In this document: one piece after another, positions 1 to 15,104 of the stretch | How the letters are laid out: each line of letters begins with the position of its first letter | How positions within the stretch are numbered: the first letter of the stretch is position 1 | DNA from: a virus | Taxonomy: Duplodnaviria; Caudoviricetes | Reading direction: 5' to 3' (one strand) | Length of the DNA: 64,000 nt | IMG/VR virus record: IMGVR_UViG_3300033074_001883 | Coordinates: 1-64,000 of that record | Translations under genes and position numbers: made by a program | Notes under the pieces: generated by a model | What the model was told of the DNA's origin: nothing | What the model saw: the letters and a program-made list of their open reading frames with translations, nothing else | Databases searched by the model: none

Positions 1-1019
1 TGCACGCCGCTCGGCCTCATGGTGATGGTGCCCGGCTCGTCGATGCGGACGGTCAACCGCACGCGCGAGTTGTCGCCAGCGACGGTGCCGCCGAGAACCG
101 ACTCGAAGGAGAACGGCACCATGATCGAGTTGATCGTGCGGTTCGCGCCGGGGCTCGGTGGCGTGAACTCGTACGTCACCACAAGCTGAATCGACATGTG
201 GTTCGCGCGAGCGAGCGCGTTCGCGCGGGCCTTGAACTGATGCGTCGCTGTCGTCGTCGGGACGGTCGCCGAGCGGTCGTAGATCCAGCGGCACATCCGG
301 TCGCTGGCGAGCGCGCACTCCTGCGCGCCGAAGGCGAACTCGCCGTCGGTGTCGATCTCCAAACCCAACGTCCAGTCCGTTGCCACGCCAGCATTTGCCT
401 CGTTACCCTCGACGACAAAGTAGTAGTCACGAATCGTGACACCTGACTCAGGGAGGATGCCGGACCCGCCTGTCAAAATCGGAATCTGGTTCGTTCCGAT
501 TTGCGTCATCGTGGTGGCGAGCGCACCCACGAGAGATTCCAGCGGGAGCACCACACTCTTGATGTGCGTCGCATCCGCGTCGTCGTACTCATAGGTAATG
601 AAGAGTTCAGCAGAGACGTTGCGGTAGCCGCCCGTCGTGCCGGTGCTCTGCGACTGGAGCCAAAACATCTCGACCGAGTGCGACGTGCCGGTGAAGTTGG
701 TGGCGAAGTAGCTGGTGAAGTCAGCGTGCCAGTGAATCGCGATGTTCTCGCCTGTGTTCGCGAGCGTCGATGCTGTGTCGTTGACGTCGCTGTCTGCCAC
801 CGCGTCGATCCCGCACGAGACCTGTACGCGGTTCACCGAGCCGCCCGTCGCGGTGATGATGTCCTGCCCCGAGAAGACGACGAACGCGGATCGAATCACC
901 CGCGACGTCGTCTCCGGGATGTAGACGGTCTTCGTGCCGAGGCTGGTCTTGGTGAGGTCAGCCGTGGCCGTGGTGAGGGAGCCCCACCCGTACCGCACTG
1001 TCTTCGTCGCAAGAGCCAC
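1..1019 (-). CDS. Putative virion/tail-fibre-associated protein, truncated by the left window edge
   Basis: Read manually: GTG at 1019 behind AAAGGCGGTG, open frame to base 1 (MALATKTVRYGWGSLTTATADLTKTSLGTKTVYIPETTSRVIRSAF...). Thr/Ser/Gly-rich. Missing from the ORF track because it has no stop in the window. Confidence 0.7.
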   Translation of the reverse strand, partial: MALATKTVRYGWGSLTTATADLTKTSLGTKTVYIPETTSRVIRSAFVVFSGQDIITATGGSVNRVQVSCGIDAVADSDVNDTASTLANTGENIAIHWHADFTSYFATNFTGTSHSVEMFWLQSQSTGTTGGYRNVSAELFITYEYDDADATHIKSVVLPLESLVGALATTMTQIGTNQIPILTGGSGILPESGVTIRDYYFVVEGNEANAGVATDWTLGLEIDTDGEFAFGAQECALASDRMCRWIYDRSATVPTTTATHQFKARANALARANHMSIQLVVTYEFTPPSPGANRTINSIMVPFSFESVLGGTVAGDNSRVRLTVRIDEPGTITMRPSGV

Positions 1020-1037
1020 GGCACACCGCCTTTGTGC

Positions 1038-1619
1038 TTAGCCGAGCGTGATGGTGAACGTGACGGTCAGCGTGTCGGTGTTCACGAGGTTGCGCTGCGT
1101 GAAAGCGAGCGCGTGGTTCATCGTGCCCGCCGAGACAGCCGTGAAGAGGGCCGCCTTCTGCGCGCTCTGCGTGCCGGTCGCCGTGAAGACCTTGGAGACG
1201 GTCGTGGTGTTGGTGCCGCCCGTGTGCGCGTACGAGCCCGCTGCGCGGCCGAGGCCGTTGAGCGTGATTTCGTTGCTCAGCGTGGTACTGGCCGTCGTCT
1301 CCGTCAGCGTGTCGTTGCTCAGCCCGATGAAGTTGAGGCCGTTCGTGCCGAGGCCTGACGTGCCGTACCCCTGAAGATGCAGGTAGTCGCGGCCTGCGGT
1401 GGTGATGACGTTCCACACCAACTCGCCCTCGTCGAGCGGAGCGTAGCGCGAGGGCACGAGGAGGCCGGTCACCTCGTCCTTGATGAAGTCGATGGCGCGG
1501 TGCTGCTGGACAAAGGCCGAGGCGCGCCCGAGCGGCACGCCCTCCTTCATGTTGATGCCGGAACCGGCGAGGACAGCGAGGGCCAGCTTGGCGCGACGGA
1601 GGTAGTCGTTCAGCTTCAT
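1038..1619 (-). CDS. Virion structural protein (minor tail/fibre-type)
   Basis: 193 aa. The pattern NVITTAGRD...IGLSND...LSNEI...R...SKVF...TLTVTFTI resembles common phage minor tail proteins. Late-gene context. Confidence 0.65.
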   Translation of the reverse strand: MKLNDYLRRAKLALAVLAGSGINMKEGVPLGRASAFVQQHRAIDFIKDEVTGLLVPSRYAPLDEGELVWNVITTAGRDYLHLQGYGTSGLGTNGLNFIGLSNDTLTETTASTTLSNEITLNGLGRAAGSYAHTGGTNTTTVSKVFTATGTQSAQKAALFTAVSAGTMNHALAFTQRNLVNTDTLTVTFTITLG

Positions 1620-1653
1620 GGTGGGTTCCTTCGGAAGAGTTGAGCTGCTTGTA

Positions 1654-1938
1654 CTACGAGCCGCCGTCTGGGACTACTCCGCACCGCAGCCACGCTTCCC
1701 TGCTGTACTGCTCCAGCGACTCCACGTACCGCAGAAGCCGCGTCCCCCCATTGAGGTCGAAGCACGCGAGGTTCTCCGGGCACCCGTCTACAGGGCCCAG
1801 CACGGGGATGCTACTTGCCAGACTTGGTGGTGCCACCGGGAGGCACGCCCGTGGGGAGCGGTCTGGGGGCGACACGGTCTTTGGACAACACGTCAGTGAG
1901 ACGAGAGCGAAGCTCAGCAGGACTGCTCGGTGCATCAC
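1654..1938 (-). CDS. o-spanin (Rz1-like outer-membrane lipoprotein)
   Basis: Lipoprotein-type signal ending LVSLT-C, Pro-rich linker, extra Cys residues. Overlaps the 3' end of the i-spanin gene in another frame, downstream of endolysin and holin. Confidence 0.75.
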   Translation of the reverse strand: MMHRAVLLSFALVSLTCCPKTVSPPDRSPRACLPVAPPSLASSIPVLGPVDGCPENLACFDLNGGTRLLRYVESLEQYSREAWLRCGVVPDGGS

Positions 1939-2158
1939 GTGCCTCCCATGCGGCCTTGTACTGGGCGATGACCTCTTCGAGCCGGGCGATCTCTGCCTTG
2001 GACTCCTCTTCGTGCTTGGCGACGGCTGCGTACGCCAAGCGCGTTGACGTGCTGTACGTGTCGAGCGCGTCGTTAAGCACGAAGATGTGACGGGCCATCA
2101 CCACGATGATGGCCACCGCCACGAGGAAGAGCACCACGAAGGTGATGAGGACCTCCAT
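1811..2158 (-). CDS. i-spanin (Rz-like)
   Basis: Start at ATG 2158 (MEVLITFVVLFLVAVAIIVVMA): N-terminal TM helix then a coiled coil (EEESKAEIARLEEVIAQYK). Coupled to the upstream gene by TGATG. Confidence 0.75.
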   Translation of the reverse strand: MEVLITFVVLFLVAVAIIVVMARHIFVLNDALDTYSTSTRLAYAAVAKHEEESKAEIARLEEVIAQYKAAWEARDAPSSPAELRSRLTDVLSKDRVAPRPLPTGVPPGGTTKSGK

Positions 2159-2373
2159 CACAGCGCGGGGTCCCGCTGGTTCACCGGGGAAATGGCGATG
2201 GCCTTCTTCGCGTAGAAGCACGCCACTTCGAGGTTCGAGCGCATCACCGCGATGCAGCGCGGGTCACCGTCAGCGGTGAGCTCGATCATTCGATCGAGCA
2301 ACGCATCGAACGACTCGCCGACCGCCTTCGCTCGGCGCGTGCCCTCCTCGTTGAGCACGTGCGTCTTGAACAT
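2158..2373 (-). CDS. Acb2/Tad1/Vs.4-like helical-hairpin protein (putative cyclic-nucleotide sponge, anti-defence)
   Basis: 71 aa from ATG 2373: MFKTHVLNEEG...AKAVGESFDALLDRM...PRCIAVMRSNLEVACFYAKKAIAISPVNQ. The C-terminal helix parallels T4 Vs.4 (TKLKEASMWACRAV.QP) and Acb2 as recalled. Confidence 0.6.
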   Translation of the reverse strand: MFKTHVLNEEGTRRAKAVGESFDALLDRMIELTADGDPRCIAVMRSNLEVACFYAKKAIAISPVNQRDPAL

Positions 2374-2378
2374 CGGGC

Positions 2379-2912
2379 TCACGGCTGCACCGTCGGAGCG
2401 GGAGGCGGAGGCGGCTTGGAGAAGAGCTTCTCGACGAGCGGGAAGACCACCTTGCTCAGCCAACTCCAGAAGCCAGAAGCCGCTGCGGCGAGGAGCACGG
2501 CGTTCAGGATGTCCATGCCCGACGGCGTCTTCCCCGCACCCCACGTAGTGGTGAGCATGCCGGAGAAGGTGACGAAGAACGCCATCACGATGGCCGCCCC
2601 GTTGGTCGCGAAGACGGGGGCCTTCGGCGCGAGGAACTTGCGGAGGACGTAGACCAGCAGCGTCACGATGATGAAGGTGAGCTTGCCCCACTCTTTCGAC
2701 GTGACGGCGTCGTGAATCGCCGTGAGGACGCGTGCCGGGTCGGCCTCGGGGTCGAGGACCGGCGCGGTCGGCGGCAGGCTGATGGGAGTGAGCGGCGCGA
2801 GCGCGACCCCGGCGTCGACCATCTCGACCGGAGGCGGAAACGCGGCGTCGACGGACTCACCGTCGGCGAACGCAGTGAGGCTGAAGAGGACGACGAGGAC
2901 GAAGCGCTTCAT
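2379..2912 (-). CDS. Putative holin (signal peptide plus about 3 TM helices)
   Basis: Signal-like N-terminus (MKRFVLVVLFSLTAFA-DG), Pro-rich segment, three hydrophobic segments. Lies between endolysin and spanins. Confidence 0.55.
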   Translation of the reverse strand: MKRFVLVVLFSLTAFADGESVDAAFPPPVEMVDAGVALAPLTPISLPPTAPVLDPEADPARVLTAIHDAVTSKEWGKLTFIIVTLLVYVLRKFLAPKAPVFATNGAAIVMAFFVTFSGMLTTTWGAGKTPSGMDILNAVLLAAAASGFWSWLSKVVFPLVEKLFSKPPPPPAPTVQP

Positions 2913-2936
2913 GGTGAGTACCCCTCGGAAACGGTG

Positions 2937-3413
2937 TCAGACGCCACGGCAATACTGGAAGTGCATGGCGTCCTTGACACTACGCCATCTCCCTCCCCAC
3001 TCCCAGCCCTGCTCTTCGAAGGCCGACAGGAAGACGGGCGGGAGGTCGGTCACGAGCTTCGAGCCCATCGGGTTCGTGTCCCAGTTGATGTCGAAGGCGA
3101 TGCCCCACGAGTGCACCGAGAGCGGCATCGTCGGGTCGTGCCGCATGTGCCGGGGGACGAAGCCGCCGAGCATGCGGATCTTGTACTGCGGGCACCGCAC
3201 CATCGCTTCCTTGAGGCACGTCTCGAAGATCGGCGCGACGAGCCGGTGAAGCTGGATGGAGCACTTCGTCCCGCACACGTTGCGGAGGACGACGAGGTTG
3301 TCCTTCTCCCACGTGTCGTCGATGTCGACGGCACCCTTCGAGAGTTCGACGTACTTGAACTTCCCGAAGACCTTCTCGATCTCCTTGAAGCCAGTCGGCG
3401 GAATGATGCTCAT
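2937..3413 (-). CDS. Endolysin, M15 family zinc peptidase (L-Ala-D-Glu/D-Ala-D-Ala type)
   Basis: Motifs R...LSVHSWGIAFDIN and WGGRW...DAMHFQY are diagnostic of peptidase M15. Confidence 0.9.
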   Translation of the reverse strand: MSIIPPTGFKEIEKVFGKFKYVELSKGAVDIDDTWEKDNLVVLRNVCGTKCSIQLHRLVAPIFETCLKEAMVRCPQYKIRMLGGFVPRHMRHDPTMPLSVHSWGIAFDINWDTNPMGSKLVTDLPPVFLSAFEEQGWEWGGRWRSVKDAMHFQYCRGV

Positions 3414-3424
3414 GGTTAGTCCCC

Positions 3425-5704
3425 TTACGTGGTGGAGCCGTTGGTGTTCATGCGCTGCCGAACGTCTTCGAGGCGGTAGGACCCGGCGAAGAACTGGGAG
3501 ATGCCCGTGTCCGTCTCGACGCCGTCCGTGTTGTTACCCCAAAGGTAGTCGTAGTAGTACGACCCCTTCCCGGCCCCCACCGCGTGTTCTGCGTAGATGG
3601 GCAGGTTCGCGCTCAGGTAGCGGTGGAAAACACAGGCCTGCACCTGAAGGTGGAACTGCACCCCAGCGTTCTGGATGAGCGTGTAGAGGAAGTTCGTCGG
3701 TCCGACCGCGAACACCGTGTTGTCGTCGGGCGTCTTCGCTCCGGTGAACTCGCACCCCTCGATGGTGATGCGCGTGCCCGTGAGCGCGGAGCCCGCGCCA
3801 GAGACGACCTGAATGGCCGCGCCGTTGGTGCCCGCCGTGTGGTTGCCGCAGAAGAAGCGGCACCCCTTGAAGACCTGCGGGAGCGCGTTCACGCCGACGT
3901 TCGCCACGGGGAACAGCGGAGCCGCCGTGCTCGGGACGTTGATCCAGAAGTCGCTGTTCTTGGCGACGACCGCAATCGAAGGTCGGTCGATGTTAACGAT
4001 GGAGTTCCCGTGCTCCACGGAGCACGACTGGAACGTCACCAACGACGCCTTGTTCCCGGAGAAGGTGAAGTCGCCGCCAGCGTTCCGGCTGATGAGCGGT
4101 GAGCTTGCGCCCGTCGAAGAGCGGCGGAACTTGTTCCCCGTGAAGACGAGGTCGAGGTACGCCGAGCCCGAGAGGAGGTTCACGCACTCGGAGAGGTTGT
4201 GCCAGTTGCAGTTGAGGAACTCCGCCGCGTACGTGCCATTCGTACCGAGGCGACCGAGACCGCGCCACTCGGGCCGTCCGGCCTCGTTGAACTGGCATCC
4301 GTCGAATTTGGCCCCGAGGACCACCTGCCCCGTGGTGAAGAGCTGATCGTTCACCGTCGTCGGGTAGAAGGAGCAGTTCTTGAACGTGATGCTGTTGCCG
4401 GAGAGCGTCAACTTGTCGAAGCAAGCCGAGCCAGTCCACTCGAAGAAGCAGTCGACGAAGCGGACGTTGGTGCCGATGGTGTTGATGTTAGCGAGGCCGC
4501 CAACGGTCGACGAACCAAGACGCCGGAAGCTGCAATTCCGGAAGAGGATGTTGGCGCACGACGTAGCACTGAGTTCGAGCAGCACGGCGTCCGTCACTTC
4601 GAGCGTCATGTTCTCGATGGTGAGCGCGGTGATGGTGCCTTGCATGCGCACGAAGGACGAGAGCGTGAGCTTCGTCGCTCCCGTGCCGTCTCCGCGAAGA
4701 ACGAAGCTGGCCTTGTTGTCGAGGTTCAGGAAACCCTCGGTGTGGTCACCCGCCTTGAGGTGGACGACACCGCGTGTGACGGCTGCGATGGCGGAGGCCA
4801 CCGAGGTGTAGTCGGCCACGCCCACCGTCGGGTGCACCGTGGCGAAGGCGGTCTTCGTCGCTTGAATGCGACGGCTCAGCGTCGTCTGAACGACCGCGTT
4901 CTGGAGGTCGGTGCGAGCGTCGATGACCTCCTGAAGCGTCGTGGGCGGGTTCCACCAGTCCTGCCCGGTCGCTCCGGAGATGGTGCGGAGCACCGAGGCG
5001 AGCGCCTTGAACATCGTGCGGATGCCCTTGACGTTGCGGTCGCCGCCCGACGAGCCGATGGCGAACGGCAGGTCGTTGACGCCGCCGTTGAGCGCCGGGA
5101 TTTGGTTACCCGAGACCATCCACATGTTGCGGAAGTCGACGTTGCTGAACGCGATGACGCCGGTCCCGTTCGTCTTGCACGCCGCGAGCGCGACGAGCTT
5201 GCGGTTCTTCCCGGAGATGAACGCCGTCGTCTGGAAGCTGCTCTGGAGGAGCGTCACGTCGGCGTTGGACGTCACGTAGAGACCGACGAGCTTCGACTTC
5301 CGCGTGGGCGTGACGAGGCTGTACTCCTCGGGCGGCGTGGGGATGTCGTTGAGGAAACGCCGCGCATCGGAGTCAGAGTCCTGCTCGATGGCGTACGCGT
5401 GGATGTAGCAGGACTGGCTCGCCGGAAGCGCAACGGAGAGCGGGGCGGAGGAGAGCATCTCAAGAACGTTCCCTTCCGCGTCGATGGCCGCGCTGTCGAC
5501 CCCGAGGAGTTGCCACGTGAGGCTGAGCGTGGAGCCGACGCCGTCGAAGCCGGTGAGCACGGTGCCGTTGACACCGGGCTCCATGAGCACGGTCATCATC
5601 TCGCGGAAGTCGGAGTCCTTGAGGGTGGAGATGGCGGTGAGGTCGTCGACGTCGACACGCTGGTCCTCGACGAAGTTCACGTTCTTCTGGGTAGCGAAGG
5701 GCAT
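3425..5704 (-). CDS. Tailspike/receptor-binding protein with parallel beta-helix (possible depolymerase)
   Basis: 759 aa. N-terminal baseplate-anchor-like region; YTSVASAIAA...VHLKAGDH beta-helix cap; repeated ITFKNCSF/AEFLNCNW/VFKGCRF/ITIEGCEF coils. Confidence 0.75.
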   Translation of the reverse strand: MPFATQKNVNFVEDQRVDVDDLTAISTLKDSDFREMMTVLMEPGVNGTVLTGFDGVGSTLSLTWQLLGVDSAAIDAEGNVLEMLSSAPLSVALPASQSCYIHAYAIEQDSDSDARRFLNDIPTPPEEYSLVTPTRKSKLVGLYVTSNADVTLLQSSFQTTAFISGKNRKLVALAACKTNGTGVIAFSNVDFRNMWMVSGNQIPALNGGVNDLPFAIGSSGGDRNVKGIRTMFKALASVLRTISGATGQDWWNPPTTLQEVIDARTDLQNAVVQTTLSRRIQATKTAFATVHPTVGVADYTSVASAIAAVTRGVVHLKAGDHTEGFLNLDNKASFVLRGDGTGATKLTLSSFVRMQGTITALTIENMTLEVTDAVLLELSATSCANILFRNCSFRRLGSSTVGGLANINTIGTNVRFVDCFFEWTGSACFDKLTLSGNSITFKNCSFYPTTVNDQLFTTGQVVLGAKFDGCQFNEAGRPEWRGLGRLGTNGTYAAEFLNCNWHNLSECVNLLSGSAYLDLVFTGNKFRRSSTGASSPLISRNAGGDFTFSGNKASLVTFQSCSVEHGNSIVNIDRPSIAVVAKNSDFWINVPSTAAPLFPVANVGVNALPQVFKGCRFFCGNHTAGTNGAAIQVVSGAGSALTGTRITIEGCEFTGAKTPDDNTVFAVGPTNFLYTLIQNAGVQFHLQVQACVFHRYLSANLPIYAEHAVGAGKGSYYYDYLWGNNTDGVETDTGISQFFAGSYRLEDVRQRMNTNGSTT

Positions 5705-6774
5705 CAGTCTCTCCTCTGGCGGAATTCCACTTTGACACCTGCTGCGCGGACCAGCTTCATCACATTCAGTAGAGCGGGTCTATTCGCTCCGCGCATGCGG
5801 GCGTAGATGGAGTTGTTGGTGATGTTGGAGACAGCGGAAGCGGGCGTCGGACGAATGCGCGGGACGTAGGTCGGGATGGCGGTCGCACGGAGGTAGTCGC
5901 CCGTGTGCGACACCGTGGAGGCGCGCGAGGGCGTTCGCAGGAAGAGACCGGTCCCCGGGCCTGTCGGCAGAAGAGTCGACGGGATCTCGATGGTGATGGT
6001 CTTCCGGCGCACCTCGAAGACGTTCCACCCGGTGGTGGCCTTGTCCCCGAAAATGGCGGTGAGCACCTTCTCCAGCGTGCTTCGCGTGCACTTCTTCTGG
6101 AAGGCGAGCGCCGCGATGTACTGGCGGAACGCGGTGTCGGTGAGCGCGAGGAGGAACGGCTTCGAGATGCCGTAGTTGTCCGCGATGGTGAGGAGGTCGT
6201 CACCGATGGCCGTGCGGAGGAACATGCCGCGACGTGCGCCCTCCAGCCCCTCTGGGTCGAGCGGCGTGAACTCACGAATGCCGGGGACGAGGCCGAGTCC
6301 GTCGCCGAACGTGCTCGCGTAGAGCAGCGCGTCGGCGGCCGTCGAGGCGGCGAGCGCGGCCTTGAGCGCGGCGGCCGTCGTCGAGATTTGACCGAAGGAG
6401 TCCGTCTCCAGCGAGACGAGCACGTCCTTCCCCGTCACCGTGATGGTTAGCGGGGAACTCACCGTCGTTGGCACGTCGTGCTTCACGCGAATCGCCGGGT
6501 CGTCGACACGCGCGACGTAGAGAACGTTGCCCGTCGGAGCCTGAGCGCGGACGAGGAGCGTGCGTTCGCCGACGGCCACGCGGTGATCCTCCAAGCCGAT
6601 GGCGTGAAGGATGGCCCCGAGGAGAGACGGGTAGCGCGTCTCGTACACCGGGGGCATGAGCTTCTTGATCTCCTCCACCTTGCGTGGAACCCCCTGCGCG
6701 CCCGAAGAGGGCGACGGACCCGGCACGGCTGGTGTGACGGGCGGAGGAAGGAGAGGCCAGAAGTAGGTAGTCAT
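5704..6774 (-). CDS. Baseplate wedge subunit (P2 gpI-like)
   Basis: FLRTAIGDDLLTIADNYGI...TDTAFRQYIAALAFQKKCTRSTLEKVL pattern. Downstream of baseplate J. Confidence 0.6.
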   Translation of the reverse strand: MTTYFWPLLPPPVTPAVPGPSPSSGAQGVPRKVEEIKKLMPPVYETRYPSLLGAILHAIGLEDHRVAVGERTLLVRAQAPTGNVLYVARVDDPAIRVKHDVPTTVSSPLTITVTGKDVLVSLETDSFGQISTTAAALKAALAASTAADALLYASTFGDGLGLVPGIREFTPLDPEGLEGARRGMFLRTAIGDDLLTIADNYGISKPFLLALTDTAFRQYIAALAFQKKCTRSTLEKVLTAIFGDKATTGWNVFEVRRKTITIEIPSTLLPTGPGTGLFLRTPSRASTVSHTGDYLRATAIPTYVPRIRPTPASAVSNITNNSIYARMRGANRPALLNVMKLVRAAGVKVEFRQRRD

Positions 6775-7202
6775 GGTGCGAGGGCTCCGAAGGCGTCGAC
6801 CGCGACGACGCTAACAGACGGCGACGCAGGCCAACCTCCCGACCGAAGAAGGACGAAGTGGAACCCGTCCGTGATTGGTGTCCGCGTGCTCTGCACGTAG
6901 GTGGGGGCGAACGCTGCGCCGTCGTGGACAACCTCGTACGCGCCCGTGGGGAAGGAGACGAGCACGACGAGCGCCACCATCGTGTCCGGGTCCGTGACGT
7001 CGAACTGGATGGGGTTGCTCGCGTAGAGCCCGTCGCCCGGCGTCGGGACGAGGTTAGTGATGAGCGGCGGGCTCGGCGTCGGCGGCACGACCGGCACGAC
7101 AACCTGACCCGCGAAGACGAACTCCGACTCGTCTCGACCGGTCAACTCCCACGTGAAGAACGGGATGTCGATGAAGGCGAAGTCTGATTCGAGAAGAGCC
7201 AC
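6771..7202 (-). CDS. Virion protein with an Ig-like domain
   Basis: 143 aa, P..P.PG...PIQFDVTD...V.V.AVD..G pattern shared with 8244-8942. Confidence 0.5.
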   Translation of the reverse strand: MALLESDFAFIDIPFFTWELTGRDESEFVFAGQVVVPVVPPTPSPPLITNLVPTPGDGLYASNPIQFDVTDPDTMVALVVLVSFPTGAYEVVHDGAAFAPTYVQSTRTPITDGFHFVLLRSGGWPASPSVSVVAVDAFGALAP

Positions 7203-7211
7203 AGTTCCTCC

Positions 7212-8228
7212 TCAGACCGTCGGCGCGACGCCGGGGCAAGCCCACACGAAGTCGCCTACCACGGTACGGGTGATGACACCGGCCAGCGAGATGGGCTCTC
7301 CGACTGCCGCGTTCGTGGTGTAGAGGTCGGGGAGGATTCCTCGGTAGGCGTACTGCGCGCCGCTGTTGCCCGCCCAGACCGCGCACGCCGTCGCGTTGTA
7401 CTTCCCCGAGAAGGCGTCCGTGGTGTAGGCCGCGCCGCCCGTCATGTCGGTACCGCCCGCGCGCAGGCCCTGCATGCCGCCCGTGTTGACCACTGTGAGG
7501 CCGTTCGGCGAGCGACCGACGACGCCTCCCGCGCCGTTGGCGATCTGAACGGCGGTGCACGACCCTCGTCCGGTTGACTGCGCGTTTCCCACCCAAAACG
7601 TGTTGCGCAAGTCACCCGCGTCAGCGCCGGTCGTCTTCATCAGCGAAATCGTCAGGAAGACCACACCCGTCCCTGCGCGATGCGCCCAGAAGGTGAACTG
7701 CTCGTCGGTTCCGGCGACGAAGCTCGTGTAGCACGTTGCTCCAGTCGTCGTGTCGGCGAGAAAGTTCTGAGGCGCGTTGCCGGTCGTCGTCGTCGCCCAG
7801 AGGTACTCCTCGGTAGAGGTCGGGCGGTCGTTCACCGTGCCGCCCGTGAACGGGGCTGCGACGCGCGTCCCCGCGATGACGATGTTCGTGTTCGTCGCGT
7901 TGATGCAGTCGATCACGATTTGCGTGTTGCCCTTCTCAAGCCAGATCCACGAGTGCGCGGCACCCGCCGCTGCCCAGACGAGGTTGGTGCGGGCCGCGAT
8001 GTGGTTCACCCCGACGAGAGAGACGCTCACCGAGTTCGACGAGCCCTTCACGGTCCAGACGCTCGCGGCGTTTCGAGTCCCGGTCAGCGTTCCAGTCGCC
8101 GCTGTGTCGAGAAGATTCTGGATGATGCTGAAGATGACCGACTGCGCGAGGTCGAGCTGCACCGCGTTCGCCGCGTAGGGCTGGTTCATCCTCGAATTGC
8201 GGGTCTGCGTCATCGCTGGGAATGTCAT
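7212..8228 (-). CDS. Tail fibre/baseplate accessory protein
   Basis: 338 aa, Thr/Gly/Ala-rich beta protein in the fibre cluster. SD AAAGGA. Confidence 0.55.
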   Translation of the reverse strand: MTFPAMTQTRNSRMNQPYAANAVQLDLAQSVIFSIIQNLLDTAATGTLTGTRNAASVWTVKGSSNSVSVSLVGVNHIAARTNLVWAAAGAAHSWIWLEKGNTQIVIDCINATNTNIVIAGTRVAAPFTGGTVNDRPTSTEEYLWATTTTGNAPQNFLADTTTGATCYTSFVAGTDEQFTFWAHRAGTGVVFLTISLMKTTGADAGDLRNTFWVGNAQSTGRGSCTAVQIANGAGGVVGRSPNGLTVVNTGGMQGLRAGGTDMTGGAAYTTDAFSGKYNATACAVWAGNSGAQYAYRGILPDLYTTNAAVGEPISLAGVITRTVVGDFVWACPGVAPTV

Positions 8229-11254: not shown

Positions 11255-13069
11255 TTACGAGATGGTGATGAGAGAGGCGCGAGTGCGCGGCAGCGTACCA
11301 TCGAGCACGGTCACGTTCGAGGAAGGCGTTCCGACCTTGACGTCGACGACGCCCGGGACCGACATGACCGCCGCGACGACCTCCGCGAGGATGACGTCGT
11401 CACCGATGCCGAGCCCGTTCACGTAGCCCTGCACGGCGTCACGAATCGCGGCGGAGAGCGACGACTCGACGACACCGAAGCCGCTCACCACGATGAGGTT
11501 GAACGAGACGTTCTGAAGCGTGGGCGCGCGCACCTTCAGCTTCACACCGACGGCGGCCTCGCCCGGGTAGTTGTCGAGGTCGAGCGGGTCGCCCTTGAGC
11601 ACGCGCTGCACTTCGCGGATGAGCCCCGTGTAGTAGGTGTACGCGTTCGTCGGGTTCGGCACGGCGGCGAGCACGTCGTACTGCACGAGGCCCGCTACCA
11701 ACTCCACGTCGCCTGACGTCTCGTTGAAGAGGTAGTCGGTGCCGAGCGTGAGGAACGTGGTCGCGAGGATACCGTACGGACCCACAGTCGGGAGCGTCGT
11801 CGTCACCGTCACCGTGAAGTCGTTGGCGGTGTTTGCGGTGATGACGAAGGCGTTGCGGTTATCGTCGATGACGGTGCGGCCGACGAGCGCGCCGGGAGTG
11901 AAGCCTGCTCCGGTGTCGACGCACACCGCGTTGCCGACGCCCGGGGTCACCGAGTCCACCTCGCCTCGGAGGTCGCTCTTCTTGAGCGAGAGCGAGCCGC
12001 TCACCACCGGCCAGTCGGTGAGACGTGCGCGGCGCTGACCCGTCTCTGCGCGGTGGATGAGGAGTTCGAGGCTCGTCTTCGCCGACGTCGTCGTCACGGT
12101 GCCGGTGCCGTCGTCGATGTACACCGAGACGTCGGGGTCGCTGAACTCCTCGACGACCTGTGCCGTCTGCACGCGTTGCCCACTCGCGAGCGAGACGGCG
12201 AGCGTGGCGACGAGGATGTCGTTCCACGTCCCCGCCGACAACGCTTGGAGCTTGAGCTGGAGGCGACGGAAGTATTCCTCGTCGGTCTCTTCGTCGCGTC
12301 CACCCACGGCCGGGGCGTCGTTGCTGACCGTCGCCGTCTGGAAGGGCGGCGCACCGATGAGTGAGATGCGCGCGGTGCCGACGTTGTAGACCGCGCCCGT
12401 ACTCGTCGAGATGGCGGTCACCTCGTTCGAGAAGACCTCGCCGTCCAAGAGCGTCGCGACGCTCTGCGTGAGGAAGTCAAGCTGCGCGACCTCGTCGGTC
12501 TCTGGGACGGAGACCGTGAGACCGGCACCAATGGTGCGGTCCGCGCCAGCCGTCGAGAGCAGGACTTGTGTCGCGGCGTTGTGGTTAAGCACGAGAGCCG
12601 AGGAGAGCGTGAAGACGTTTCCGGCCTTCGACGTGTACGGCCGAAGCTCACGCTGACCGGGCGTGTCTCGCTCGAAGACAAGTGCACCCGTGTTCGGGAA
12701 CGCGGAACCGTCCGTCAACGTCACCGAGGTCGCGCCGATGAGCGCGGACACGCCCATGGTCGTCTCGGTCTTGATGGAGACGGTGGAGTCACCGAACTTC
12801 ACCAGCACGGTGGACTGCGCGGGCGTGAGTCGCGCCTCGTCGTAGTCGGCCCCGCGCTCGTCGAGGTCCTCTCCCCGCGCGTTGCGGATGGAGAACGCCT
12901 GCTTCAGGCGGCTGATTTGGATGTTCTGATCGGCGTCCTGAAGGCTGGAGGCCTCCAGAATCGTGCGGGTCACCGAGCCCGGGTTGGTGTCGTCGATCTC
13001 CGAGTTCGCCTTCACCGTGGCGAGTTGCGAGTCGAGAATCTCAGGCAGCGAGCGGAAGCGGAAGGTCAT
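11255..13069 (-). CDS. Baseplate J-like wedge protein
   Basis: N-terminal EIDDTNPGSVTRTILEA, A.GEDLD, GGRDEETDEEYFRR; C-terminal YVNGLGIGDDV...VMSVPGVVDV. Confidence 0.9.
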   Translation of the reverse strand: MTFRFRSLPEILDSQLATVKANSEIDDTNPGSVTRTILEASSLQDADQNIQISRLKQAFSIRNARGEDLDERGADYDEARLTPAQSTVLVKFGDSTVSIKTETTMGVSALIGATSVTLTDGSAFPNTGALVFERDTPGQRELRPYTSKAGNVFTLSSALVLNHNAATQVLLSTAGADRTIGAGLTVSVPETDEVAQLDFLTQSVATLLDGEVFSNEVTAISTSTGAVYNVGTARISLIGAPPFQTATVSNDAPAVGGRDEETDEEYFRRLQLKLQALSAGTWNDILVATLAVSLASGQRVQTAQVVEEFSDPDVSVYIDDGTGTVTTTSAKTSLELLIHRAETGQRRARLTDWPVVSGSLSLKKSDLRGEVDSVTPGVGNAVCVDTGAGFTPGALVGRTVIDDNRNAFVITANTANDFTVTVTTTLPTVGPYGILATTFLTLGTDYLFNETSGDVELVAGLVQYDVLAAVPNPTNAYTYYTGLIREVQRVLKGDPLDLDNYPGEAAVGVKLKVRAPTLQNVSFNLIVVSGFGVVESSLSAAIRDAVQGYVNGLGIGDDVILAEVVAAVMSVPGVVDVKVGTPSSNVTVLDGTLPRTRASLITIS

Positions 13070-13076
13070 GGGGTTC

Positions 13077-15104
13077 TCATCGGAGAGGCGAGGTGAACTC
13101 GGAGCGGAGGCCGCCCTTCACACGAAGCTTGGAGACGGTCTGGTACGTGTCACGGTCCTGCCGGATGTTCAACTCCTCGACCGCTTCGATGCGTGAGTCG
13201 GACAGCAGCGTCGTCTCGAAGTTCAGGCGGAGCTTGATGAGCGCCTCGGGCGAGCCGCGTTGCCCGAAGACCGGGAGGAGACCGAACCACTGGTGAAGGA
13301 TGAGGTCGCCCGCCGACATCTCGAACTTGAGGGCGAGTGCTTGGTTGAGGTTCTCCTCGCCACGGAGCAAGCCGAGGTCGCCCGTGCTGCTGCGCACGAG
13401 GTCGTAGAGCCCCGTCTCGGGGTCCTTGCGGATGCGGAGGTCGATGCCGAGCAACGCGGCGATTCCGCCTCGTCCCGTCTGCCGTGGCTGGAGGAAGAAG
13501 ACCGTGAAGAGGTCACCCGAGGAAGGCGCGACGGAGAAGGCCACACCCACCGTGATTGAGTTAGCCGTGTTCGACACCACGAGCCTCGACTCGCCCGACG
13601 CTGCGCCGGAGAGCATTTTCACCGTGTAGCCGACCCACTGGTTGATGCGCCACTCCGTGCGACCGCTTCTGAGAAGCGTCGTCGTGGTCGCGCCCGAGAC
13701 CTCGTCCTTGTCGGTTCGCCCGATGAGCGGGGCGTCGTTGCCCGTAAGGTTCGGGTTCGAGTCCTGCGCGGCAACCGTCGGCACCATGACGACGTCACCC
13801 GGCGCGAGGGTGCCGGGCATGCGCTCGTCGGCGGATGGCGCGAAGTACGGCCAGCGCAGGCCGTTGAGGAGGATGATTTCGTGCGCACGCGTCGCGTCAC
13901 CCGTGGTGCGCGCGGCGAAGTTGAAGATGGTCTCCCCGGGGAGGAGCGATGCTTCTGACAGCGCGTTGCGGTTGCGACCGGCTTGCGTCGTTGCGTCGGA
14001 GTCGCCATCGAGTCCGTGCGTCGGCGAGAAGTCGGCCACGGCGTCGTCCCAGCGGCTCTGCCACTTCTGCGCGAAGATATCGTTGCGGGCGAGGACGAAG
14101 TCCATCTCCCGGCGCACGCCGATGAGCCCCTCCATCGCGTCGACGGGCACACTGAAGAGCATGTCCGCCGAGTTCTGAATCTGTTGGAGAACGAGCGAGA
14201 TGTTAGCGGTTGCCGACGTGATGAGAGAGCGGGGGAGGTCGAGGACCTCCGCCGTCCCCGCCGCCATGCGGGAGAGGTTCGTCGACAACGCACCGGCCGT
14301 GTCGATGACGCTGACCAACAGAGAGCGCGTCGCCCTGAACTGGTTGAAGAAGTCGAGCTTGCCGCTGATGAGCGTGTTGGCGTCGTTCAACCGATCGCGT
14401 GCCGCCGCCAGACCACGGAGCGCGTTGGTGAGCGCAGAGTTCCCAACGGTGACGTGGTCCACCGGACGGAGCACCGCCGCACCCTTCGCGATGGTGCGAA
14501 GACGGATGGTGTAGTTGTAGGTCATCGGGCTGTTCGACGCCCTCGACATGCGGAACGTGAGGGGCTCGACGAGCCACACCTCGTTGTCCTTCATGTTGAT
14601 CCAGTAGAACGTGGCCGCCTGCTCGCCCACCTTCGCGAGGCGGTGAAGTTGCCAGTATTCGCGGAAGAGCGAACGAAGCTGAAGGAACGCGTTGTACCCG
14701 GAGACGCGAGCGTAGGCGCTCTCGACGAGGTTAGCCGCGCCGCCAGTGAGGTTGGACACCGCCTGCGCCTGCAACACCTCGGAAGAGAGGTGCTTGAAGT
14801 TCTTCACCGGGAGAAAGCCTGTGGTCCCTCCGATGGTGATGTCCTTGAAGATGTTGCCTTGGTTCTCGATGTACTTCCCGCCGCCCTGAGTGGGCGTGAT
14901 GCTCACCGCGCCCTCCTCGTCCTGCTCGATGGACTTCGGGTTGATGGGGAAGACGAACTCCTTGTCACCCGTCGCCGTGCGCAGGACGAACCCGTAGCGC
15001 GCCTTCTCGTGGCCGAGGAAGTTTCGAGCGACGACGTCCTGCCCCGTCTCCCAGAGGTAGTCGGAGTCGTTGTTCGGTTCGGGCGGGCGGAGTGGTTTGC
15101 GCAT
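13077..15104 (-). CDS. Baseplate fusion protein: tube-initiator-like N-terminus, LysM, gp25-like C-terminus
   Basis: FVFPINPKSIEQ...T.GG..IE..G...KDITIGGTTG; LysM-like LPGETIFNFAARTTGDATRAHEIILLNGL; C-terminal GDL.LL.GEENLNQAL...TLLSDSRIEAV (GPW/gp25). Confidence 0.7.
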   Translation of the reverse strand: MRKPLRPPEPNNDSDYLWETGQDVVARNFLGHEKARYGFVLRTATGDKEFVFPINPKSIEQDEEGAVSITPTQGGGKYIENQGNIFKDITIGGTTGFLPVKNFKHLSSEVLQAQAVSNLTGGAANLVESAYARVSGYNAFLQLRSLFREYWQLHRLAKVGEQAATFYWINMKDNEVWLVEPLTFRMSRASNSPMTYNYTIRLRTIAKGAAVLRPVDHVTVGNSALTNALRGLAAARDRLNDANTLISGKLDFFNQFRATRSLLVSVIDTAGALSTNLSRMAAGTAEVLDLPRSLITSATANISLVLQQIQNSADMLFSVPVDAMEGLIGVRREMDFVLARNDIFAQKWQSRWDDAVADFSPTHGLDGDSDATTQAGRNRNALSEASLLPGETIFNFAARTTGDATRAHEIILLNGLRWPYFAPSADERMPGTLAPGDVVMVPTVAAQDSNPNLTGNDAPLIGRTDKDEVSGATTTTLLRSGRTEWRINQWVGYTVKMLSGAASGESRLVVSNTANSITVGVAFSVAPSSGDLFTVFFLQPRQTGRGGIAALLGIDLRIRKDPETGLYDLVRSSTGDLGLLRGEENLNQALALKFEMSAGDLILHQWFGLLPVFGQRGSPEALIKLRLNFETTLLSDSRIEAVEELNIRQDRDTYQTVSKLRVKGGLRSEFTSPLR

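Follow-up and report, generated by a model that had tools for sequence, protein, structure and literature searches.

Acb2 proteins of the canonical type, as represented by those of Pseudomonas phage PaMx33 (8H2J and 8H2X) and by T4 Vs.4 (7UQ2), are hexameric sponges, the cGAMP pocket of which uses the residues Y11, L14, and P90 (10.1101/2025.08.24.671296). The same source describes two shorter members of the family that bear on the present study. Acb2_43 forms a hexamer with three pockets, sequesters 3'cADPR through contacts at T4, H5, L6, V7, K19, and K55, and blocks type I Thoeris, but not CBASS (Hadary et al., 2025, 10.1101/2025.08.24.671296). Acb2_3 blocks type I Thoeris together with the 3'3'-cGAMP CBASS of E. 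albertii (Table S2, 10.1101/2025.08.24.671296). Specificity thus varies sharply within the family, with Acb2_43 acting on Thoeris only, Acb2_3 on both systems, and many others on CBASS only (10.1101/2025.08.24.671296). The Tad1 homologues assayed in that work were 98-148 aa long and carried sequence preceding the hairpin (Table S2, 10.1101/2025.08.24.671296).

In the present study, we analyzed a stretch of 64,000 nucleotides, hereafter referred to as the window, from an 80-kb linear IMG/VR viral contig that was 62% complete (CheckV) and did not contain host sequence. An earlier note on this DNA had proposed that a 71-aa protein encoded near its beginning is a sponge of the Acb2 type and that its gene, besides lying within the lysis cassette, is coupled to the genes there. 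This core reading, with the coupling taken as translational, is supported by the family profile, by the predicted structure, and by a TGATG junction, each of which is described below.

The 71-aa gene and its conservation

The ORF opens with an ATG at 2373-2371 and closes with a TGA at 2160-2158 on the minus strand, exactly where the earlier note had placed it, and the overlap of its stop codon with the spanin start codon was confirmed as a single common base: in the junction TGATG, the A at 2158 ends the sponge TGA and begins the i-spanin-like ATG. Translation is taken to begin at the ATG at 2373, the position at which 78 homologues have their N-termini in the alignment. An upstream GTG at 2691 was considered as an alternative start and was rejected on the same alignment.

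An exhaustive search returned 281 cluster representatives that matched the 71-aa protein at E ≤ 1e-3. In comparisons of the gene with three relatives, dN/dS ranged between 0.29 and 0.52 and was below 1 in all six pairs. Judging from these sequence comparisons, the 71-aa ORF is a real and conserved gene and not a chance ORF, and its dN/dS, taken together with the intact near-invariant residues of its clade, argues for a functional gene. Hydropathy and topology analyses found no transmembrane (TM) segment in the protein.

Family assignment and predicted fold

Searched by itself, the 71-aa protein matched the Acb2_Tad1_hairpin family (PF24729) with 24.6 bits (E 2.8e-5), the gathering cutoff of which is 27, so the single sequence falls just below it. 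The best PDB match in phmmer was 9PTQ, the structure of Acb2 homolog 43 (E 0.0039, residues 1-62). BLASTP did not produce an alignment between the window protein and Acb2_43, though phmmer and the profile both align the pair. The family profile, for which 78 near-length relatives were aligned, matched 9PTQ at E 1.5e-14 and T4 Vs.4 (7UQ2) at E 0.022, and PF24729 was matched individually by 76 of these 78 relatives (best E 1e-11). The consensus of the relatives reads F-x-x-H-x-LNE-x-G ... R-E ... TKLEEACF-x-AKKAMA-x-x-P-x-NQ, and the window protein possesses all of the near-invariant residues of the clade, i.e., F2, H5, L7, N8, G11, R14, F22, R39, L48, E49, A51, F53, Y54, A55, K56, K57, N65, and Q66. 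PHROG matches to phrog_1454 (unknown function, E 0.025) and to a MotA-like activator (E 0.03) were rejected as noise beside the Acb2 evidence. Tblastn searches of 50,697 isolated phage records with the window protein and with P0061, a consensus-like relative, yielded no match, and blastn of window positions 1-8000 against isolated phage records was equally negative.

The AlphaFold2 model, which was based on the alignment of the 78 relatives, had a mean pLDDT of 95.5 and placed helices at residues 9-32 and 38-61, in accordance with the two-helix description given in the earlier note, and one strand-like residue at either terminus; in DSSP, residues 7 and 66 were assigned to a strand or bridge. 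The terminal strands that flank the hairpin in Acb2_43 are present in the model, and the motif of the N-terminal strand is conserved. In Foldseek, 9PTQ ranked first (TM 0.78/0.80, rmsd 1.6 A over 65 columns), and ranks 1-9 were taken up by 9PTQ, Vs.4, and PaMx33 Acb2. VIA-align returned a Z of 9.2 for 9PTQ, with 68/68 residues aligned including both termini, and the remaining Acb2 entries (7UQ2, 8H2X, and 8H2J) scored 7.4, 7.1, and 7.1, while unrelated hairpins reached 6.9 at most. Since helical hairpins are common, these Z-scores alone discriminate weakly. The earlier note had named the lack of a structural match to Acb2 or Tad1, together with a lack of nucleotide binding, as grounds against its proposal; when the structural comparison was run, the top matches of both programs were all Acb2 proteins. 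Because these structural matches combine with the profile match to 9PTQ, the window protein can, on its sequence and model, be assigned securely to the Acb2 family and, within it, to the short clade typified by Acb2_43.

Acb2_43 is the best match in sequence as well as in structure. The two proteins (75 and 71 aa) have in common an N-terminal strand, two long antiparallel helices, a C-terminal strand, and the N-terminal motif MF-x-TH-x-x-N-x-x-G. They differ in that only approximately 25% of residues are identical in the structural alignment, and in that the binding of 3'cADPR was demonstrated for Acb2_43 and is attributed to the window protein by analogy only. Acb2_3 (IMG/VR 3300014501_000031), which belongs to the same clade, shares the motifs F-x-x-H-x-LN-x-x-G and LE-x-A-x-F-x-AKKA with the window protein and is 36% identical to it over 67 aa (E 1e-16); Acb2_3 was assayed and is without a structure, whereas the window protein is known from its sequence and model. 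The canonical Acb2 proteins of PaMx33 and T4 share the PF24729 domain and the central two-helix hairpin, but are longer (approximately 90-95 aa), have extra N-terminal elements, and are 14-19% identical to the window protein, in which their cGAMP-pocket residues Y11, L14, and P90 have no evident counterpart.

Regarding Tad1, which is also a signal sponge and in which the PF24729 hairpin domain is C-terminal, the resemblance is limited to that domain. The window protein is not a Tad1 because it consists of the hairpin alone, without the N-terminal domain, and no Tad1 structure appeared among the matches. The wording "Acb2/Tad1-like" of the earlier note consequently holds for Acb2 and not for Tad1.

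Acb2 homologues were also noted in Paenibacillus and Brevibacillus phages under the label "phosphomannomutase" (e.g., KT361654.1, MH460825.1, and NC_028805.1), which, on hairpin proteins of approximately 65 aa, looks like a propagated misannotation.

Predicted ligand pocket and likely target

Three of the six residues through which Acb2_43 contacts its ligand are identical in the window protein, namely, T4, H5, and K55 (K57 in the window protein), and L6 and V7 are conservatively replaced by V6 and L7. The remaining contact, K19, is Gly in the window protein and mostly Ala across the clade, and, therefore, the diphosphate site appears to be only partly conserved.

Since both of the tested clade members block type I Thoeris, Thoeris is, by analogy, at least as likely as CBASS to be the target of the window protein. 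The emphasis of the earlier note on CBASS needs to be revised to this extent: it is weakened by Acb2_43, the closest solved relative, which does not block CBASS, and retains a footing in Acb2_3, the closer of the two assayed relatives, which blocks CBASS in addition to Thoeris. Considering the activities of Acb2_43 and Acb2_3, the best-supported mechanism would be that of a sponge for 3'cADPR and possibly 3'3'-cGAMP, the presumed hexamer and ligand both being drawn from these relatives.

Lysis cassette and operon layout

The features surrounding the 71-aa gene are listed in Table 1. The endolysin exceeded the PF13539 cutoff of 25 by a wide margin (61.3 bits), and several PHROG endolysin families also matched it. 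The 177-aa membrane protein has a signal-like N-terminus and hydrophobic segments at residues 78-96 and 98-116, plus a third weaker one. No Pfam or PHROG family was matched by this putative holin, an Atlas search placed it among hypothetical viral proteins and gave a single weak lead, to an r1t-holin cluster, and its gene is kept at the same position in two related loci, L001 and L003. The earlier note had described the sponge gene as lying between a holin and an i-spanin gene; the i-spanin is supported by its architecture, while the holin is a positional assignment with no family match.

Table 1. Genes and ORFs of the cassette and its surroundings (positions are those of the window)
Feature	Position	Strand	Remarks
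Baseplate protein gene	13077-15104	minus	
Baseplate wedge gene	11255-13069	minus	phrog_6, E 2e-29
759-aa protein, probable tail fibre by position only	3425-5704	minus	11 nt ahead of the endolysin start; no PHROG family
Endolysin, peptidase M15_4 (D-Ala-D-Ala carboxypeptidase type)	2937-3413	minus	PF13539 E 1.4e-16, 61.3 bits
177-aa membrane protein, putative holin	2379-2912	minus	Assigned by position and topology only
Acb2-family gene (predicted sponge), 71 aa	2158-2373	minus	Short Acb2_43/Acb2_3-like clade, beta1-alpha1-alpha2-beta2 type
i-spanin-like gene, 115 aa	1811-2158	minus	One N-terminal TM, charged helical middle, Pro-rich C-terminus
o-spanin-like ORF	1654-1938	minus	+1 frame, overlaps the i-spanin gene and runs past its end
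193-aa conserved protein	1038-1619	minus	C-terminus ...TLTVTFTITLG; immediately downstream of the cassette in the window, L001, and L006

The TM segment of the i-spanin-like protein spans residues 3-21 (hydropathy 3.41). The o-spanin-like ORF begins with a hydrophobic signal followed by the lipobox-like sequence LTCC and is rich in Pro (11.7%), with several Cys. Homologous o-spanin ORFs were found in L001, with an AFAAC lipobox, and in L003. Neither of the spanin ORFs matched a curated family in Pfam or PHROG. Their architecture, in which a protein with an N-terminal TM segment is paired with an overlapping, lipoprotein-like ORF in the +1 frame, is that of a two-component overlapped spanin pair, and this prediction is supported. 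The 193-aa protein that follows the cassette was also without a Pfam or PHROG family.

From the 759-aa gene to the i-spanin-like gene, the intergenic gaps are 11, 24, 5, and -1 nt, the third of these being the distance between the stop of the 177-aa membrane gene and the sponge ATG. No promoter-like site was found between 900 and 6000, and terminator-like sites in this region were no commoner than in shuffled sequence. Because the gaps are tight, promoter-like sites were not found in this interval, and the baseplate genes upstream lie on the same strand, it is a reasonable inference from the layout that these genes are co-transcribed in a late tail and lysis operon. The late timing proposed in the earlier note likewise derives from this arrangement of genes.

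Relatives and synteny

The order endolysin, membrane protein, sponge gene, and spanins is kept in L001 (73% identity) and L003 (83%). In the more distant L006 (51% identical), the sponge gene is retained and directly precedes the conserved structural gene. The lysis partners in the latter locus (L006:4161-5222) differ and consist of a 192-aa protein, in which an N-terminal TM segment accompanies a repetitive charged region, and a protein of 83 aa with two TM segments; an Rz/Rz1-type overlapping pair was not seen at the L006 locus.

A shortened form of the sponge homologue was observed in the 83%-identical lineage (L003:5981-6201, and also in L004 and L005), in which it was called as 66 aa. The ancestral N-terminus is still in frame as LFKSY inside a 20-nt spacer, without a start codon. 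The homologue starts at a Met corresponding to residue 6 of the window protein and, therefore, is without the pocket residues F2, T4, and H5; the position of N8 is occupied by Thr. From the sequence, this may represent a natural truncation or a change in specificity.

In wastewater metatranscriptome libraries, a relative that is approximately 90% identical was represented by contigs reaching 9.5 kb (window 1681-5000), and these contigs run unbroken through the 759-aa gene, the endolysin, the membrane gene, the sponge gene, and the spanins. They provide a lead on habitat and, possibly, on expression, with assembled contigs from RNA libraries proving neither transcription nor a single transcript. 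Among species-representative prokaryote genomes, the sole match to the clade motif was L090 (JBEIQF010000003.1, 41% identity), a 44.8-kb contig in a Halobacteriovoraceae MAG, which may represent a prophage or phage DNA that was binned with the genome and might hint at hosts of the clade.

Placement of the gene within the clade

We surveyed 80 other viral (IMG/VR) loci that encode members of the clade and range in GC content between 26% and 71%. Neighbouring genes within two positions were tallied at 61 non-redundant loci, and the 25 commonest of 42 and of 34 Pfam families did not include a lysis family; the families listed were RecA, AAA_24, DUF2800, PD-(D/E)XK, RusA, methylases, DNA polymerase, helicase, portal, and terminase. 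In a tblastn search of the clade loci with the lysis proteins of the window, the only match, obtained in L078 and L079, was to an M15 gene that is not adjacent and is encoded on the other strand. Since neither the neighbour survey nor tblastn revealed adjacent lysis genes, placement in a lysis cassette is atypical for the short Acb2 clade and was not seen in the 80 surveyed loci, yet it is not unique in the family.

Another Acb2-family gene within a lysis cassette is gene 19 of the isolated Gordonia phage Jace (MH153804.1; L089:2501-2722). It shares 4 nt with lysin A (gene 18), and the next gene encodes a 59-aa membrane protein; the cassette is without spanins because the host is an actinobacterium. 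The product, which is annotated as a hypothetical protein, is 40% identical to a canonical Acb2 homologue (E 4e-7) and differs from the window protein in belonging to the canonical FTYH-type Acb2 clade, not to the short clade. The "unusual place" that the earlier note had claimed for the gene is, accordingly, appropriate with respect to the short clade, but not unprecedented for Acb2 genes as a whole.

Discussion

We consider it probable that the 71-aa product is a cytoplasmic Acb2-family hairpin protein that acts as a hexameric sponge and is encoded in a late tail and lysis operon. This explanation takes the family membership, fold, conservation, and operon layout as found in the analysis, and we infer from them the hexamer, the identity of the ligand, the timing, and the benefit. 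By analogy with Acb2_43 and Acb2_3, the protein would most likely assemble as a homo-hexamer, the pockets of which would be formed by the N-terminal strands of opposing protomers and by helix 2 lysines. These pockets would sequester the nucleotide signals of host immunity, most likely 3'cADPR (type I Thoeris) and possibly 3'3'-cGAMP (CBASS), and the sequestration of the signal would keep the defence effector inactive. The sponge gene would be transcribed together with the genes for the tail, the endolysin, the putative holin, and the spanins, and its translation would be coupled to that of the spanin gene, so that the sponge would be made in the late phase of infection, as the virion proteins that act as triggers accumulate.

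An alternative of lower probability, which nevertheless deserves some weight, is that the protein has the Acb2 fold and is still a sponge, but binds a ligand outside those of the tested clade members; a cyclic trinucleotide, His-ADPR, N7-cADPR, a cyclic mononucleotide, or an undescribed signal would be candidates. Such a new specificity would be in keeping with the sharp variation in targets within the Acb2 family, with the lack of conservation in the window protein of K19 of Acb2_43, and with the identities of only 36% and approximately 25% to the tested relatives Acb2_3 and Acb2_43, respectively. Acb2_43 and the window protein do, however, share the pocket strand motif F-x-T-H-x-L-N together with the helix-2 lysine, and the inhibition of type I Thoeris is common to both of the tested clade members, which favours the sequestration of the signals already known for the clade.

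The location of the gene, flanked by the putative holin and spanin genes, and its translational coupling to the spanin gene may also suggest a lysis accessory protein, such as a cytoplasmic antiholin or a regulator of the holin or spanins, which is merely hairpin-shaped and encoded there because it helps to time lysis; close relatives have the gene in the same place, and hairpin folds are common. We regard this as very improbable because the profile homology is to a solved sponge (9PTQ, E 1.5e-14), clade members in the 80 other loci adjoin replication, recombination, methylase, or packaging genes, and L006 retains the sponge gene even though its lysis partners differ; furthermore, the 71-aa protein is without a TM segment. 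Scarcely any probability, and slightly less than for a lysis accessory protein, is assigned to a decaying or inactive sponge remnant that is carried along in the operon. The homologue in L003-L005, which lost the ancestral start and the first five residues with pocket residues among them, and dN/dS values of 0.3-0.5, which are not very low, point in this direction, whereas the gene in the window has an intact frame, an intact start, and all of the near-invariant residues of the clade, dN/dS was below 1 in 6/6 pairs, and the AlphaFold2 model is very confident.

A bolder form of the sponge explanation concerns the reason for its location. A recent report describes tail fibres and capsids as triggers of Thoeris and CBASS (10.64898/2026.06.04.730250), and, therefore, the late co-expression of a sponge with such proteins is a sensible and testable hypothesis on when sponges are needed. 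A sponge wired into the late lysis operon may buffer the Thoeris or CBASS signals that are elicited by late structural proteins until lysis takes place, perhaps with an Acb2 ligand specificity that has yet to be described. In this full form, the proposal is speculative and rather unlikely to be correct. If true, it would represent a counter-defence tied to a particular phase of infection, in contrast to the rest of the clade, in which the genes are placed early or in accessory regions.

The mechanism and family are already known, and the gain from the present analysis is therefore incremental. It adds one member, with an activity assigned by analogy, to the recently described short Acb2 clade that targets Thoeris as well as CBASS, and it provides a clear case of a predicted sponge gene that is hard-wired into what appears to be a late tail and lysis operon. 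For the annotation of phage genomes, small soluble genes within lysis cassettes are not automatically to be regarded as encoding lysis proteins.
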